From the sequence record NC_135731.1: a stretch of 64,000 nucleotides of DNA; one strand, given 5' to 3'. Numbering within the stretch: the first letter of the stretch is position 1; each line of letters begins with the position of its first letter. A model generated the notes under the pieces. That model was given only the letters and a program-made list of their open reading frames with translations. It searched no databases and had not been told where the DNA came from. The stretch comes from a phage. A program made the position numbers and the translations under genes. Below are positions 1 to 6,475 of this stretch, piece after piece.

Positions 1-92
1 TTCAAGGGGGACTTTAAGATATAGCAGCTTATCCCCATCTTTCATATCTCCTGATTCTCCTTGTGTGGCAATTTTCTTTAAAATAGCAGGGA

Positions 93-647
93 TTACTCCC
101 TGCTGTCAATATCAAAACTCATTGCAATACGGTATGCCTCTTCTAATGGTAAGAGTCTCCCCCACACATCCCAACCGACATCAAGCTGCCTGCCAAACAA
201 CTGTTGTGTGGTTCCGTGAGCATGACCGAACAGTTGGACTGATCCGTGAGGCTTTCTGTTCCACTTTGCAAACTGGTAATGGCTCATACAGATCAAATTC
301 TTGTTGTGGCGAAGCTCGTAATAATCTACAACCTCATGACCGAACTCTTTCATAATTCTGACAGTCGTTCTTGTGTCATGGTTGCCACGAACAAGAATAA
401 TATGTCCGTTCAACATATTTAGAATATCTGGAAGTAAGTTGTTGATATTCTTATCATTAGTGCACGCAATATCTCCCAGGTGGAACACAGTGTCTGCAGG
501 TGACACAACAGAGTTCCACTCGGCGATGATTCCAGCATTCATACTATCAAGATTGTGATCATACTGAGATCTGTGTTTTTGACATGACTCAAACTCCATG
601 ACCCGCTGGTGGAGAAAGTGTGTGTCGCTTGTTACAAAGTATTTCAT
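93..647 (-). CDS. Calcineurin-like metallophosphoesterase (putative polynucleotide 3'-phosphatase)
   Basis: ORF 93-749 trimmed to internal ATG at 647 (MKYFVTSDTHF); motifs SDTHF, GDIA, GNHD, GHAHG typical of metallophosphoesterases; starts 5 nt after the upstream kinase stop. Confidence 0.7.
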   Translation of the reverse strand: MKYFVTSDTHFLHQRVMEFESCQKHRSQYDHNLDSMNAGIIAEWNSVVSPADTVFHLGDIACTNDKNINNLLPDILNMLNGHIILVRGNHDTRTTVRIMKEFGHEVVDYYELRHNKNLICMSHYQFAKWNRKPHGSVQLFGHAHGTTQQLFGRQLDVGWDVWGRLLPLEEAYRIAMSFDIDSRE

Positions 648-654
648 ACATTCC

Positions 655-1062
655 TCATTTAAGTTTAATGCAGTTTTTAAGTTGGCGTTCCATACGATCC
701 ACAACCTCGTCTGAAGCATGAATGCTTTTATTACCGTGGCGGTTTTCAACCACGATCACGGTATAACTATACCCATAACTGATTGCCATGTCAACATATT
801 CCTGCACATGTTTTTCTTTTGTAAAAGTATTACTTACCACGATACGGTCGTATCCCATACGCATCATATCTTCTACGTTATCTTTGCACCATTTTGCTGC
901 GAGTGTTAATTTACTTGCATCCCAGTTGTAATTGCCGTCATCGTCATACCAGAACATGTCGTTCTCAAAATGTGGATACAGGCCTTCTAAAGATAGCGCA
1001 TTTGCCAGTGTTGATTTGCCAGACCCCGGCAGACCACGCACGATATATAGCATTTTAGACAT
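655..1062 (-). CDS. P-loop polynucleotide 5'-kinase-like protein
   Basis: Walker A GLPGSGKST near N-terminus, resembling T4 Pnk kinase domain; GGAGG RBS 6 nt upstream of ATG at 1062. Confidence 0.65.
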   Translation of the reverse strand: MSKMLYIVRGLPGSGKSTLANALSLEGLYPHFENDMFWYDDDGNYNWDASKLTLAAKWCKDNVEDMMRMGYDRIVVSNTFTKEKHVQEYVDMAISYGYSYTVIVVENRHGNKSIHASDEVVDRMERQLKNCIKLK

Positions 1063-1162
1063 AGCAATCCTCCGTTTTAATTTTAATGATAGTATACCTA
1101 ACTGTTTTGTTAATTTCAAGTGTTGACACTAGGTTATTTGTGTGGCAGGATAGACTGACAAA

Positions 1163-2098
1163 ATGACAAATGAGGAACGTATGATGAAGTATTTTAATGC
1201 AGATGACCTAGTAGACAAAGGTCTTGTAACCAGTCGGTATTATCCAGATCTTGGATTAAAGATCTATAAATATGCCAGAAAAGTATTCTACAACAATCTG
1301 TGGCATTTGTCTCCGCGTTTACTGGAGTGCCGAGGTATTGTTGTTGGCAATGAGGGGAATGTTGTGGCATGGCCTTTCACAAAAGTATTCAACTTAGGAG
1401 AAAACTCCACCAACCTACCGGACAGTAAACTTGTTACTGCGGTAGAGAAAAAGAACGGATTCCTCGGTGTGGTATCATCTCATAAAGGTGAACTGTTGTT
1501 CTCAACAACCGGGTCTCTTGATTCCCCATATTGTAACCTCGCAAAAGAAACCATCATGGAGCAATGTGGTAATTTAGATCTTATCAAGAAGGTTATGGGC
1601 AATGAAAACATGACATTCATGTTTGAAATTTGCCACCCTTCAGATCCGCATATTGTTCAGGAAGATCATGGCGCATATTTGATAGGTTGCAGATATAATG
1701 ATTCTGGAATAATGCTACCAGAAGCAGCTTTAGACGGGATTGCCAAATACCTTGGTGCAAAACGTCCTCACACTGTGCGTGAAATTCCGTTCAGCTATGC
1801 AAAAGAATTAGCTGCAGAAACAAGAGGTGAAGGGTATATGATTCGTAAGCCTTACTACCCTTATGATCTGCAGCTGAAGATCAAGTCTCCATACTATCTG
1901 GCACGGAAGGCTGTAATGAGGGGTAAAGCTTGGAAGATTTGGGATGATGATATCTTTAAACGTGTTGACGAAGAGTTTTACGGTATGGTAAAATTTATTC
2001 GTAGCAACTATACAGAAGATGTGTGGAATTGCTTATTAGAGCAGGAGCGTCGTGAGATACTGGACTACTATTTCCACAACGAGGACTATATGCAATGA
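1163..2098 (+). CDS. RNA ligase, T4 Rnl1 family
   Basis: Strong motif similarity to T4 RnlA: LLECRGIVV, KVFNLGEN, motif I KKNG (KxNG as in Trl1), LFSTTGSLDS. Confidence 0.85.
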   Translation: MTNEERMMKYFNADDLVDKGLVTSRYYPDLGLKIYKYARKVFYNNLWHLSPRLLECRGIVVGNEGNVVAWPFTKVFNLGENSTNLPDSKLVTAVEKKNGFLGVVSSHKGELLFSTTGSLDSPYCNLAKETIMEQCGNLDLIKKVMGNENMTFMFEICHPSDPHIVQEDHGAYLIGCRYNDSGIMLPEAALDGIAKYLGAKRPHTVREIPFSYAKELAAETRGEGYMIRKPYYPYDLQLKIKSPYYLARKAVMRGKAWKIWDDDIFKRVDEEFYGMVKFIRSNYTEDVWNCLLEQERREILDYYFHNEDYMQ

Positions 2099-2445
2099 AG
2101 AAGTGGATTGTGTGGCTTGATGATTTTAGAGATCCGTCAGATTATGGACTCCCAGACGCTCTGTGGCTAAAGAATTCTTCTGAGTTTATGGATTTTCTTA
2201 ATGATAAGAGAAAGCTCTACAGACGCGTATCTGAGTGGTATTTTGACAATGATCTAGGTGAAGTTCTTGAAGGGTACGACTGCTTCTCTGCGCTAGAGGA
2301 GAAACTTGTATTCGGAAAGCCACCACTTATTGACAACGTGATTATTTTCGTGCATACTTCTAATCCATCGGCAGCTCGTAAATTTATGCTTGCTGCTGAC
2401 TCATTCAAGAAGTTTGGAATAGAGATTAAACAAAACATCTACTGA
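2095..2445 (+). CDS. hypothetical protein (116 aa)
   Basis: ORF with ATGA overlap to ligase stop; no recognisable motif. Confidence 0.5.
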   Translation: MKKWIVWLDDFRDPSDYGLPDALWLKNSSEFMDFLNDKRKLYRRVSEWYFDNDLGEVLEGYDCFSALEEKLVFGKPPLIDNVIIFVHTSNPSAARKFMLAADSFKKFGIEIKQNIY

Positions 2446-2453
2446 GGACACTT

Positions 2454-3215
2454 ATGCGACGACTGATTATTATCTCCGGTGCTGGTTTGAGCGCTGAATC
2501 TGGTATCCCCACCTTCCGATCTGGTAGTACAGCAATGTGGGAGAATTTTAGCATCGATGAGGTATGCAACATCCACACCTTTGCCAAGAACTACGACAAG
2601 GTGCACGCATTCTATAATGCACGCCGTGCAGCTTTAGGGGGTGTTGAACCAAATATTGCCCATCTCCGCATCGCAGAATGGTATTCTCGTTGGTCTGGGC
2701 GTGTGATTAATCTTACAACCAACGTAGATGATCTCTTGGAGCGTGCTGGTGTTAAACATGAAGATATCTTACATGTCCATGGGTATTTGCCTGAAATCAC
2801 CTACGAAGATGCTGAAGGTAACGATGTAATTAAAAATATCGGATACACTGAGGTAGATACAGGCAAGTATATCTGGGTTAAGCCTAATGTGGTGTTCTTC
2901 GGAGAAGTAGCTCCGAAGTATACAGACATGTATGACCTGTTGACTTCTCTCACGAGCAATGATATGGTAATCCTGGTAGGTTGTTCTAACACAGTTATTA
3001 ATTTTAACTGGGAATTGTTTCCTGCTACTTGTAAAGGCACAAAACTGCTGATTGTAAACAAGTATGATTCGCAGAGTGCAGATGGAAGTGGCATTTCACG
3101 TAGCGACCTTTATCAATATGAGGATCGCGGGATCCCTGTATGGTTTAACGGTGCTGTTGACGCTTTCTCTGATAAAGCATTTATTGAAACTGTAGAAAAC
3201 TTTATGGAACTGTAA
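2454..3215 (+). CDS. Sir2-family NAD-dependent deacylase / ADP-ribosyltransferase (sirtuin)
   Basis: GAGLSAESGIPTFR NAD-binding motif, catalytic His in HVHG, CobB-like spacing; no zinc-binding Cys pairs. Confidence 0.8.
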   Translation: MRRLIIISGAGLSAESGIPTFRSGSTAMWENFSIDEVCNIHTFAKNYDKVHAFYNARRAALGGVEPNIAHLRIAEWYSRWSGRVINLTTNVDDLLERAGVKHEDILHVHGYLPEITYEDAEGNDVIKNIGYTEVDTGKYIWVKPNVVFFGEVAPKYTDMYDLLTSLTSNDMVILVGCSNTVINFNWELFPATCKGTKLLIVNKYDSQSADGSGISRSDLYQYEDRGIPVWFNGAVDAFSDKAFIETVENFMEL

Positions 3216-3229
3216 GAGGTGACCTTTTA

Positions 3230-3943
3230 ATGCTAAATACTAAACTGATCGACAACCTGGAAAAACTGTCTCAGCCTGAAAACTACCTTTGGTCTGCCAA
3301 CTGGGTGGAAAACTGGAACCGTGTGGCAGCTAAAGTGAAAAAATCATACACACCATTCGAATTACAGCTTAGCTTCATTGAGGAAGAGTTCAATGAGGTT
3401 TTGGAAGAGCTGGAGAAAGGTGATGGTGGAGATCACCTGCTAAAAGAGGCCTGCGATCTTCACGTTGTCACAAGTTATGCAGCCTATCTCGTTAATGACA
3501 ATCACGAAAAGTGGTCAAACCTGTTTGATAATCCACGAGGTCTTAAGTTCAAGATCGGTGAGTTCTATGATACACTGATCGCTGCGAAAAACACATCCAA
3601 GCAAAGATCGTCAGCTTACCGCTTAGCGGAGTTGTCAACAGCTTTGCTGTTCCAGCTTCGCGGCGATGTGTGCGGGATGATGCGTAAGGTTCTCAAATCG
3701 AATGACAGCAAGTTTGCACGGGTAAACCATCTACGGCATTCACACGGTGCCAGTGCAGATATGCCTGCTGAACAACTCATCGAGTTGGAGATTAAAGATC
3801 TTGAGCGTCGTTTTGGTGGTCGCTACGAAGGTTTCGTTGCTAAAGAGGAGTTCTACAACGGCAATAAAGTTATTATATTCCTTGACAGTAAAGGTAAGAT
3901 TATGAAGCCTTCGAGCTTCAAGGATGTAACAGAGTATATTTAA
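3230..3943 (+). CDS. MazG-like nucleotide pyrophosphohydrolase (putative)
   Basis: EEEFNEVLEELEKGD acidic helix resembling MazG EExxE motif; terminator hairpin follows. Confidence 0.45.
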   Translation: MLNTKLIDNLEKLSQPENYLWSANWVENWNRVAAKVKKSYTPFELQLSFIEEEFNEVLEELEKGDGGDHLLKEACDLHVVTSYAAYLVNDNHEKWSNLFDNPRGLKFKIGEFYDTLIAAKNTSKQRSSAYRLAELSTALLFQLRGDVCGMMRKVLKSNDSKFARVNHLRHSHGASADMPAEQLIELEIKDLERRFGGRYEGFVAKEEFYNGNKVIIFLDSKGKIMKPSSFKDVTEYI

Positions 3944-3949
3944 CAACAT

Positions 3950-3975
3950 AGCCGGGATTACCCGGCTTTACTTAT
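3950..3975 (+). terminator. Rho-independent terminator
   Basis: Hairpin AGCCGGG-ATTA-CCCGGCT followed by TTTACTTATT. Confidence 0.55.
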
Positions 3976-4005
3976 TATGGAAAGTATGCAGTGGGGTAGT
4001 TAGTT

Positions 4006-4314
4006 ATGTACAAGCATTCCAGAGATCTTGAAAAAGATGCTGTGTTTGGCGACCAGATGAAGGAGCTGATCAAACTTATTGGTAGAATGGAAGATAAGTT
4101 TGACACTAAAATCTACATCGATAGCAAGATCTTCAACCACAAAATATGGACAAATGTGTGTGTTGGGCTACATGGTGATAAAGATATTGTAAATTTGGTT
4201 GTAATAAAGTTCATAGTGTGGCAGAATAAGACTATACGTTATTCCGATCCACACTTACTTGTTTATCCTATAAAAGACCTACTACAGAAGGAGGACTGCA
4301 ATGCCGTTATTTAA
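4006..4314 (+). CDS. hypothetical protein (102 aa)
   Basis: ORF in gene array; no motif recognised. Confidence 0.45.
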   Translation: MYKHSRDLEKDAVFGDQMKELIKLIGRMEDKFDTKIYIDSKIFNHKIWTNVCVGLHGDKDIVNLVVIKFIVWQNKTIRYSDPHLLVYPIKDLLQKEDCNAVI

Positions 4315-4570
4315 TCTTGCTAAACCTGTAGAAGCCCACCAGTTTGACGGAAGCTCTTCATCAGTATCTGATCTGCAACGGTGGATTGATACAGGTGTGT
4401 TTACATCGTCACCTGTTCGGACCAGAGATCTTCGTCGCATGTGTGAGCTTGTCGAGCCTTTTGGTAACCTTGTCTTGTACCAGGGAGATTGGCTAGTTGA
4501 CTTTATGGGAGACTGGTTGGTAATGAGTAAAGAAGAGATGTTTAAAATTTTTAAGGAAGAGGACGAGTAA
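4301..4570 (+). CDS. hypothetical protein (89 aa)
   Basis: ORF; stop overlaps next start (ATGA). Confidence 0.45.
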   Translation: MPLFNLAKPVEAHQFDGSSSSVSDLQRWIDTGVFTSSPVRTRDLRRMCELVEPFGNLVLYQGDWLVDFMGDWLVMSKEEMFKIFKEEDE

Positions 4571-5853
4571 TGCATCAGATCAAAACAACACTGTACGCAC
4601 TGAATAAAGATGGCAGCTACCAACAGTGGAAAGTATTCACGGATGGTGATAAGGTTATCGTAGAGTTTGGCAAGCTTGATGGTAAACTGCAATACAAAGA
4701 GACGATCTGCACACCTAAGAACGTGGGTCGTGCCAATGAAACTACAGCTGAGCAACAGGCCGAGCTGGAAGCGATCAGTAAGTGGGAAAAACAAGTCCGT
4801 CTGGGGTATGTTGAAAACATGGAAGATTGCGAGCAGGGTGTTGATCTTTTACCCATGCTGGTGCATGACTACCTGAAGCGTGGCAAGGCACTTAAATTAC
4901 CTTGCTGGATCTTGCGTAAGTTAGATGGCCTTCGTCTGCTTGTTGTTTTCCAAAATGGTGAGCCTAAATTTATTTCCCGTGGTAATAAGTCCTACCCTAT
5001 TCAAGGAAAGCTTTTAGAGCAACTTCGTTCTTTCCATTCTACCACTGGGATTAAACAACTTGATGGGGAACTATACATTCATGGTCTTCCTTTGCAGAAA
5101 ATAGTGTCTCTTGCTAAACGGTGGCGCACACAGGAAGAGATTCAGGCCGAGATCGATAAAGACTATGAGGCAGATAAAAAACGCCGTCATGCCGCAATTA
5201 AGGCAGGCTTATCAACATACAAAAACTTCAACAAGGTAGATATTCCTGTCGATGTTGAGCCTGTTCGTGATGATTTGCGTTACGGTGGGTACTGTAGCTA
5301 CGATCTGGAGTATCACATTTTTGATATTCCTAGCGACAAGGTGTGGTGGGATCCAGAAACAGAGTCTGGACGCTGCAAGGATCTTATGGATGCAGGGGAT
5401 ACCGTTACCACTCTGATGCTTGACCATATCAAGGTTGTTGACGCAGAGCTTGCGTACACAGTTGATCATTGTGAAGAATCTGTTGGTATATTCATGTCCG
5501 AAGGATATGAAGGTACTATCATGCGTAATTTCTGCGGTAAATACGAGTACGGTCAGCGAACATCTGAAGCATTGAAATGGAAAAAGTTCAACGACGCAGA
5601 GGTGAAAGTTATTGACGTTGAGAAAGATAAGAATGACGAAGGTGTTCTTATCTGTGTTGACAAGGAAGGTGTTATTGTTAAAATGAAGATGAAAGGCACG
5701 CACGAGGAGCGTAGCTATGACAGGATGCAGGAAATGATCGGCAAGTTTGTCACCTTCAAATATCAATCAAGGACAGAAGACAACAACTACCAATTCCCTG
5801 TCGGTATCTGCGTCCGAAATGTTAACCCAGATACTTGGGAGGTGCTTGAATGA
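4570..5853 (+). CDS. ATP-dependent DNA ligase (nucleotidyltransferase superfamily)
   Basis: Motif I KLDGLR (KxDG), motif III DGELYIHG, motif IV EGYEGTIMR, motif V KWKKF. Confidence 0.65.
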   Translation: MHQIKTTLYALNKDGSYQQWKVFTDGDKVIVEFGKLDGKLQYKETICTPKNVGRANETTAEQQAELEAISKWEKQVRLGYVENMEDCEQGVDLLPMLVHDYLKRGKALKLPCWILRKLDGLRLLVVFQNGEPKFISRGNKSYPIQGKLLEQLRSFHSTTGIKQLDGELYIHGLPLQKIVSLAKRWRTQEEIQAEIDKDYEADKKRRHAAIKAGLSTYKNFNKVDIPVDVEPVRDDLRYGGYCSYDLEYHIFDIPSDKVWWDPETESGRCKDLMDAGDTVTTLMLDHIKVVDAELAYTVDHCEESVGIFMSEGYEGTIMRNFCGKYEYGQRTSEALKWKKFNDAEVKVIDVEKDKNDEGVLICVDKEGVIVKMKMKGTHEERSYDRMQEMIGKFVTFKYQSRTEDNNYQFPVGICVRNVNPDTWEVLE

Positions 5854-5977
5854 TGTAGGAAGGTTCAGTAGGTAACGGTAGCCAATCGAATGATGGTTTT
5901 TCAATTGGCACCTACATAACCACACTGTGTAGTGTTGTTGATCTGGTTAGTTATGAGTAAACTGGAGAGTATGAAAA

Positions 5978-6475
5978 ATGAAACTTGATAAAAATGTTCA
6001 ACGAAAAGCTTTCTTGGATCTTATTGGCTGGGCAGAGGGAACAACAACCCACCCTGCCACCAAATGTGGAGGATACGATGTTGTAGCATACGGGATGGAC
6101 GGAAAACCTGAAATCTTTACAGATTTTTCTACGCACCCTTTTGCAAACGGTCGCCCTGGTAAAGTGTTTAACTCAAAAGGGCAAAGAACTACAGCCTGCG
6201 GTAAATATCAATTTCTTGTCAAATACTGGGAACACTACAAAAAACAGCTTAAGTTGCCGGATTTTGGACCAGACAGTCAGGATAAGTGGGCGATCCAGTT
6301 GATCAGGGAACGTAAAGCACTTGAAGATATAGATAACGGTCATATTAAATCTGCTATACGTAAGACCTCAAATATTTGGGCTTCGTTCCCCTACAACCAG
6401 TACGACCAAAATCCAAAAACCATTGACAAGTTGCTTAAGAAATTTGTAGAGTTTGGAGGTGTTGTTCTGGATTAA
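5978..6475 (+). CDS. Endolysin, lambda R-type lytic transglycosylase
   Basis: Near-colinear similarity to lambda R: QRKAFLDLIGWAEGT, GYDV, CGKYQFLVKYWEHYKKQLKLPDFGPDSQD, SNIWASFP. Confidence 0.85.
   Translation: MKLDKNVQRKAFLDLIGWAEGTTTHPATKCGGYDVVAYGMDGKPEIFTDFSTHPFANGRPGKVFNSKGQRTTACGKYQFLVKYWEHYKKQLKLPDFGPDSQDKWAIQLIRERKALEDIDNGHIKSAIRKTSNIWASFPYNQYDQNPKTIDKLLKKFVEFGGVVLD

Follow-up and report, generated by a model that had tools for sequence, protein, structure and literature searches.

Near the start of a 64,000-nucleotide stretch of phage DNA (sequence record NC_135731.1; the whole stretch is called the window here) lies a group of genes whose products are predicted to repair broken RNA. 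A sequence-only reading had described a three-gene cassette there, in which a T4 Rnl1-family RNA ligase is transcribed divergently from a P-loop kinase and a calcineurin-like metallophosphoesterase. We found the three open reading frames (ORFs) where it had placed them, at 93-647, 655-1062 and 1163-2098, and the divergent transcription was borne out. Pfam searches matched Metallophos, AAA_33 and RNA_lig_T4_1 to the expected ORFs. However, an end at 2098 is too early, since genes for a cREC protein, a sirtuin and a MazG-like protein continue the plus-strand unit to 3943. The reading of the locus as a repair cassette was thus broadly right but incomplete in extent.

The locus consists of two divergent operons, kinase-phosphoesterase and ligase-cREC-sirtuin-MazG, which together span 93-3967. 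On the minus strand, the gene of a stand-alone kinase of 135 amino acids (655-1062) has a GGAGGA Shine-Dalgarno sequence before its ATG at 1062 and is separated by 7 nt from the gene of a metallophosphoesterase of 184 amino acids (93-647). On the plus strand, the ligase ORF opens at 1163, where the earlier reading had begun the gene. That ATG has no Shine-Dalgarno sequence, whereas GAGGA at 1172-1176 lies 4 nt 5' of the ATG at 1181; the GenBank coding sequence also begins at 1181 and the consensus of the homologs begins at M8. The ligase gene therefore probably occupies 1181-2098. An ATGA at 2095-2098 overlaps its stop with the start of the gene for cREC, a cyclic-phosphate-processing receiver-like protein (2095-2445; PF20274 cREC_REC, 9e-14). 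After gaps of 8 nt and 14 nt follow the sirtuin gene (2454-3215; PF02146, 1.4e-27, and phrog_2162) and the last plus-strand gene, which encodes a MazG-like nucleotide pyrophosphohydrolase (3230-3943; phrog_671, 1e-21). A terminator-like GC-rich hairpin with a 7-pair stem, 6 G-C pairs and a T-rich tail (3950-3967, plus strand) begins 7 nt past the MazG-like stop.

The two transcription units are separated by a divergent intergenic region at 1063-1180. Within it, sigma-70-like matches were found on the minus strand at 1119-1091 and 1113-1086, and on the plus strand TTGACA is present at 1123-1128 without a good -10 element. The sigma-70 scan was not above chance, with 18 matches found and 13.3 ± 3.6 expected from shuffling, and it gave no convincing plus-strand promoter upstream of the ligase.

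Positions 1-6000 of the window match the Vequintavirus Escherichia phage phiWec196 (LC739542.1) with 100% identity and correspond there to 28627-22628 in reverse orientation. The same 6 kb are 96-97% identical to more than 100 further rV5-like phages. Eighteen of the 122 matching records carry the label "Campylobacter phage" despite 97% identity to rV5-like phages of E. coli.

The ligase ORF of 311 amino acids matched RNA_lig_T4_1 (2e-14) and phrog_562 (1e-65). It passes the Pfam PF09511 cut-off (54.5 bits against 28.3) and falls below the equivalog cut-off of the NCBIfam "T4 RnlA family" TIGR02308 (39.4 against 242.25 bits). Ten residues are invariant in 42 homologs: R57, K74, K96, N98, G99, E155, E223, G224, K239 and K241. 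All adenylyltransferase motifs are present, namely motif I (K96-x-N98-G99), F154-E155, E223-G224 and K239-x-K241, and the KKNG named earlier as motif I is indeed K96-K-N98-G99. The catalytic residues align with R54, K75, K99, E227, K240 and K242 of T4 Rnl1. The invariant LECRG (R57) and PFTK (K74) align with LECRG and PMEK of T4, whose R54 and K75 contact the gamma-phosphate of ATP from Rnl1's N-terminal sub-domain (PMC6379707). When a family profile was used, T4 Rnl1 was the sole match among solved structures (1.7e-12). By hhalign, ligase residues 33-247 lie on residues 33-248 of T4 Rnl1 with 97.5% probability, with K96 on the nucleophile K99 and motifs IV and V matched. Family profiles were needed, as single-sequence searches of the PDB with the ligase and with the kinase gave nothing useful.

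Only the adenylyltransferase domain aligns in every comparison, and the predicted ligase fold fits T4 Rnl1 and fungal Trl1 equally well. Nothing matched the C-terminal ~60 residues, which form short helices, and the T4 Rnl1-specific C-terminal domain (T4 residues ~255-374) is absent. RNA ligase families are defined by such appended domains, and the C-domain of T4 confers tRNA specificity (PMC6379707). Because this domain is missing, the protein is, as judged from its sequence, an Rnl1/Trl1-type adenylyltransferase with a C-terminal module of its own rather than a strict Rnl1. The earlier assignment to the T4 Rnl1 family thus holds for the adenylyltransferase motifs and the N-terminal sub-domain but not for the C-terminal domain. 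We found ~1680 relatives of the ligase in a large protein database, mostly of ~300 amino acids and on phage-sized contigs. The "tail-fibre attachment" label that many database annotations carry is a name transfer from T4 gp63 and has no bearing here.

The kinase matched AAA_33 (1.3e-10), phrog_2071 (1.7e-53) and phrog_505, "polynucleotide kinase" (1.5e-9). A profile built from 38 homologs aligned at its positions 2-132 with residues 1-147 of T4 Pnk (1LY1, 5.7e-9) and at its positions 4-133 with residues 10-143 of C. thermocellum Pnk (4GP7, 5e-7). The profile also matched Capnocytophaga Pnkp1 (4XRP), the seryl-tRNA(Sec) kinase PSTK and a Rhizopus azygosporus kinase (9D8A), while its matches to adenylate kinases covered the P-loop only. 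The P-loop G10-x-x-G13-x-G15-K16-S17 is present, and the invariant D35 falls on D35 of T4 Pnk, which we take to be the general base that activates the 5'-OH. By these alignments the kinase belongs to the polynucleotide 5'-OH kinase clade. It is a single-domain protein, in agreement with the earlier statement that kinase and phosphatase are separate genes.

The phosphoesterase matched Metallophos_2 and Metallophos (1.4e-6 and 2.8e-6, above the Pfam cut-offs) and phrog_547, "phosphoesterase" (6e-52). Its binuclear-metal motifs, D8-x-H10, G58-D59, G88-N89-H90, H123 and G141-H142-x-H144, are all invariant. The sequence profile found a single close relative of solved structure, Aquifex aq_1665 (1e-22), whose function is unassigned. 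The proposal that this phosphatase is of a binuclear-metal type rather than a HAD protein stood, and the protein falls in the aq_1665-like subfamily. A binuclear metallophosphoesterase has been found to heal RNA 2',3'-cyclic phosphate ends in the case of C. thermocellum Pnkp and of lambda phosphatase (PMC2190708). From its motifs, the protein encoded here could act like the Pnkp phosphatase though it is outside that subfamily.

We then compared 80 IMG/VR loci around ligase homologs with 37-89% identity, which were reduced to 58 clusters at 90% ligase identity. Kinase homologs were scored by domain-level single-sequence matches; a first iterated kinase profile was discarded because it absorbed kinase-ligase fusions, after which every ligase matched it. 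The phosphoesterase has a homolog no more than 1.5 kb from the ligase in 48 of the 58 clusters; for the kinase, a homolog at up to 1.5 kb or fused to the ligase was counted in 43; and both are present in 44. Unsupervised clustering of ORFs also returned the phosphoesterase family (46 loci) and the kinase (43 loci) as the commonest neighbors, followed by ATP-dependent DNA ligase (30/58), NAMPT-like (28/58) and Prs-like (28/58) families, with Macro-domain genes in 13/58. By comparison cREC was found in 7, the sirtuin in 9 and a MazG-like gene in 10 clusters. The grouping of ligase, phosphoesterase and kinase is not due to chance.

Typically the three genes follow the order phosphoesterase-ligase-kinase on a single strand, relative to which the kinase-phosphoesterase pair is inverted in the window. 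Relatives with extra genes have the order phosphoesterase-ligase-cREC-kinase-sirtuin, which places cREC and the sirtuin as insertions within the repair set. The trio extends to distant phages, among them Pseudomonas phage JG004 and Cronobacter phage GAP31 by their GenBank records. Three metagenomic contigs were picked from phosphoesterase matches, and two of them (L090 and L091) carry adjoining AAA_33 and RNA_lig_T4_1 genes; the third (L089) has no ligase or kinase within 4 kb of the phosphoesterase and has a NUDIX gene as neighbor. Overall the ligase family occurs in 762 of 50,697 phage records, which include rV5-like, Phapecoctavirus and Pakpunavirus phages.

Eleven IMG/VR loci (3 clusters) contain kinase-ligase fusion ORFs of 421-432 amino acids, with the kinase N-terminal and the ligase C-terminal. 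Pfam confirmed this architecture as AAA_33 plus RNA_lig_T4_1. Fusion with the ligase is the strongest functional link of the kinase to RNA, and it indirectly supports the prediction that the kinase would phosphorylate 5'-OH RNA. The fusions are among loci L041-L048, L052 and L054-L056 (for example L055, 7530-8825). We observed no phosphoesterase homolog within 8 kb in the fusion loci.

In cREC the receiver-like acidic site is kept, with D9-D10, D51, D53, H87, S89 and K96 invariant in 8 homologs. This domain was defined, and its operon links to RNA ligases were noted, by Iyer et al. 2021 (PMC7824862). The closest solved structure to the sirtuin is E. coli CobB (1S5P, 1e-22). The sirtuin keeps the GAGxSxxxGIPxFR and HG motifs of the NAD+ pocket and the catalytic histidine, and it scored under every NCBIfam cut-off. 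All four zinc-binding cysteines of CobB and other class III sirtuins are missing from it. It has been predicted to remove an RNA 2'-phosphate in an NAD+-dependent manner, as KptA/Tpt1 does (PMC9503650). The idea of a defense-type Sir2 was dropped when PADLOC models did not match the sirtuin; the PADLOC defense models gave no match for the ligase, cREC, the MazG-like protein or the phosphoesterase either. No Pfam match was obtained for the MazG-like gene, and MazG is counted in the rV5 neighborhood described in the literature (PMC9503650).

We consider it probable, at roughly 0.65, that these genes form an RNA heal-and-seal repair set of Vequintaviruses. The sequence shows what the ligase, kinase and phosphoesterase are and that their active sites are intact, as well as how the operons are laid out, the linkage across loci and the kinase-ligase fusions; we infer the substrate and activity of each protein, the order of the steps and a role in counter-defense. 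The small kinase would phosphorylate the 5'-OH of the break, and the metallophosphoesterase would remove a cyclic phosphate or monophosphate to leave a 3'-OH. The ligase would then adenylylate itself at Lys96, pass the AMP to the 5'-phosphate and seal the break. A second branch in Vequintaviruses, co-transcribed with the ligase, may begin with cREC opening the cyclic phosphate to a 2'-phosphate, which the sirtuin would remove using NAD+, while the MazG-like enzyme would clear nucleotide by-products. This cREC-sirtuin-MazG branch may be an alternative route for clearing 3' ends or a means of by-product disposal. The translational coupling and the terminator of the plus-strand operon, the tRNA genes near the cassette and in 23 of the 58 loci, and the earlier prediction for phage rV5 all favor the model.

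Several points weigh against a heal-and-seal repair set, and most of them concern the phosphoesterase, whose healing of RNA 3' ends is the weakest step of the model. It belongs to a subfamily without an assigned function, not to the lambda-phosphatase/Pnkp subfamily, and is no nearer the Pnkp phosphatase than many other metallophosphoesterases are. Among its 120 best relatives we found no fusion to repair, kinase or ligase domains, all being stand-alone proteins of ~180 amino acids. The cassette also contains two distinct candidate 3'-end healers, the phosphoesterase and cREC. Since the tRNA-specificity domain of T4 is absent from the ligase, tRNA may not be its preferred substrate. Finally, a literature search found no experimental study of the cassette, and the activities of its proteins are predicted. 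The phosphoesterase family is, moreover, more widely distributed than the ligase, with 1361 phage records against 762 and at least 7595 protein clusters against 1680. Because of this wider occurrence, a role in RNA 3'-end healing is suggested by linkage within this phage group. The phosphoesterase is found without this ligase in phages of Staphylococcus, Enterococcus and Listeria and in many of Vibrio, and in Staphylococcus phage P108, Enterococcus phage EF24C and Vibrio phage D411 neither ligase nor kinase lies within 4 kb of it.

The same distribution, together with contig L089, would fit a different division of labor, in which the kinase and ligase repair RNA but the phosphoesterase acts on small phosphoesters (cyclic or 2'/3'-phosphorylated nucleotides, ADP-ribose-derived products or immune signals) and cREC or host enzymes heal the RNA 3' ends. 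After aq_1665 the nearest structural relatives of the phosphoesterase include LpxH, YfcE, GpdQ and Ap4A hydrolases, whose substrates are small molecules, and the ligase loci often lie inside NAD+/ADP-ribose gene sets, as the counts for NAMPT-like, Prs-like and Macro families indicate. However, the phosphoesterase adjoins the ligase in those 48 of 58 loci, often overlapping it or tens of bases apart, and in at least 24 of 52 phosphoesterase-bearing loci a NAMPT-like gene is absent from the vicinity. Counts of phosphoesterase and ligase are nearly equal in phages of Escherichia (208/198), Pseudomonas (181/177), Klebsiella (39/36) and Acinetobacter (26/24), and most phages with the trio have no cREC to take over 3'-end healing. 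We regard a small-molecule phosphoesterase as unlikely, though less so than the two alternatives that follow.

The cassette could instead serve the RNA metabolism of the phage itself, such as maturation or splicing of phage tRNAs or of transcripts cut by a processing nuclease. It lies near a phage tRNA cluster, one member of which is an odd tRNA-like gene of 99 nt whose anticodon is UUU, and tRNA genes occur within 8 kb in 23 of the 58 loci. Against this, no intron or endonuclease partner was identified, and the annotation of T4 rnlA provides a precedent for counter-defense. Phage tRNAs (Lys, Tyr, Arg, Met and others) would equally fit the replacement of tRNAs that host nucleases target (PMC10264068). 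On balance a role confined to the phage's own RNA seems improbable to us. An ATP-dependent DNA ligase of 427 amino acids is encoded at 4570-5853, downstream of the RNA ligase by 2.5 kb; of its adenylation domain Pfam recognizes just the last quarter, in addition to the OB domain. The kinase and phosphoesterase could ready DNA ends (5'-OH and 3'-phosphate) for this enzyme, the cassette then being mainly for DNA-nick repair. Yet in the loci examined the kinase is fused to RNA ligase and never to DNA ligase, both proteins are encoded nearer to the RNA ligase and co-occur with it far more often, and the PdeM score is far under the cut-off. This makes repair of DNA highly improbable as the main function.

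The RNA heal-and-seal set preferred here can be compared with three characterized pathways. In T4, Pnkp and rnlA form a tRNA repair pathway that defeats the anticodon nuclease PrrC. Unlike T4 Pnkp (pseT), the kinase of the window is a separate protein without the HAD phosphatase domain. A T4-type HAD (DxDxT) phosphatase was not found in the seven genes scanned, and the candidate phosphatase here is instead a binuclear metalloenzyme. The ligase differs from T4 RNA ligase 1 (rnlA) in lacking the tRNA-specificity domain, in scoring far below the RnlA equivalog cut-off and in its motif I, which is KxNG here and KEDG in T4. The bacterial Pnkp/Hen1 system combines the three chemistries proposed here, including a binuclear metallophosphoesterase, in one protein with three domains in C. 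thermocellum (PMC2190708). The kinase profile matches the kinase domain of that protein (CthPnk) over its full length at the 5e-7 given above. In contrast, the phosphoesterase falls outside the subfamily of the clostridial enzyme, and neither an Rnl4-type ligase domain nor a Hen1 methyltransferase partner is present here.

The third pathway is that of fungal and plant Trl1 (CPD-KIN-LIG) with Tpt1. No 2H CPD, Tpt1/KptA homolog or Trl1 C-domain is present here, and cREC and the sirtuin occupy places analogous to Trl1 CPD and Tpt1. By sequence the ligase profile finds T4 Rnl1 and not Trl1, and in most phages that carry this ligase no sirtuin lies near it. Some details of the ligase nevertheless lean toward Trl1, namely the KxNG of motif I, the EG[FY]xxR of motif IV, and the invariant K249 and R253, 8 and 12 residues past motif V. 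In Trl1, R334 and R337 at a similar position have been proposed to bind the 2'-phosphate (PMC6379707). K249 and R253 show a spacing after motif V comparable to that in the Trl1 2'-phosphate pocket (H227, R334, R337); the resemblance is a lead and not a test. It could be that the ligase is a separate clade, neither Rnl1 nor Rnl6, which may take or even require a 3'-OH/2'-phosphate end as Trl1 does. With cREC as a cyclic phosphodiesterase and the zinc-less sirtuin as an RNA 2'-phosphotransferase, the cassette would then carry out fungal-type tRNA-splicing chemistry with unrelated folds. If so, sirtuins would gain a new catalytic activity, NAD+-dependent RNA 2'-phosphotransfer. We think this quite unlikely.

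A sirtuin-centered RNA-repair neighborhood of rV5 type was described by Iyer, Burroughs, Anantharaman and Aravind (2022, Viruses 14:1977, section 3.7.3; PMC9503650). Their definition comprises a sirtuin with a T4-like ligase, cREC, a nucleotide kinase, MazG and, in some cases, a calcineurin-like phosphoesterase. The locus studied here is the same system, with all six genes contiguous at 93-3943 in a Vequintavirus. The emphasis differs, in that our ligase-centered survey makes the phosphoesterase and kinase the constant partners (48 and 43 of 58), whereas the other three genes (for the sirtuin, cREC and MazG), at 7 to 10 of 58, were added in particular lineages. Records of BASEL phages already label the three core genes polynucleotide kinase, putative phosphoesterase and RNA ligase. 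The system was therefore already known as a prediction from sequence, through the BASEL annotation and Iyer et al. Since the genes were so annotated and the neighborhood had been published, the observation itself adds little.

Several further features were observed around these loci. Directly downstream of the ligase and kinase genes there is often a Prs-like and NAMPT-like pair (28/58 loci; for example at 3896-6867 of L083, which is phage JG004). These two genes are Adps and Namat of the published NARP1 pathway of NAD+ reconstitution, and the Macro-domain gene of 13 loci probably encodes Adpp, the ADPR-1''-phosphate phosphatase. In many phages, then, genes for RNA repair and for NAD+ rescue share one island. 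We also considered whether the phosphoesterase was the "phage phosphatase" extending the NARP1 pathway; this was rejected, as that protein is a Macro-domain protein.

A tRNA cluster lies 3 to 4.5 kb from the cassette in the source genome. The 99-nt tRNA-like gene of this cluster (L001 4589-4687, minus strand, in the phiWec196 genome) is located ~3.4 kb beyond window position 1. It scored 37.5 bits with the Rfam tRNA model, ARAGORN assigned it a 4-nt anticodon "atcc", and its fold is stable (z -4.0). By eye it has a 7-nt loop UUUUUAA, as in tRNA-Lys(UUU), and its extra arm is unusually long. Since PrrC-type nucleases classically target tRNA-Lys(UUU), the 99-nt gene may be a nuclease-resistant substitute beside the cassette. 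In the metagenomic loci, phage tmRNA genes of the permuted type were found by ARAGORN a few kb from the ligase (L043 8665-9065, L055 13208-13610 and L068 16341-16663). tRNA genes with CTA or TTA anticodons, which resemble amber or ochre suppressors, are present at L065 15172-15247, L067 11165-11237, L068 12668-12740 and L069 13588-13663 and hint at reassignment of stop codons in those phages.

One major class of bacterial immunity consists of RNA-cleaving defenses, for example PrrC, RloC, PARIS, some retrons, Cas13 and HEPN toxins, and repair of RNA damage by phages has hardly been tested outside T4. With this cassette two published predictions could be put to the test, namely that cREC acts as a cyclic phosphodiesterase and that a sirtuin can take 2'-phosphates off RNA. 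rV5-like, Phapecoctavirus and Pakpunavirus phages that carry this ligase family are considered for therapy. If the ligase, kinase and phosphoesterase do repair tRNA, this would explain host range in many phages.

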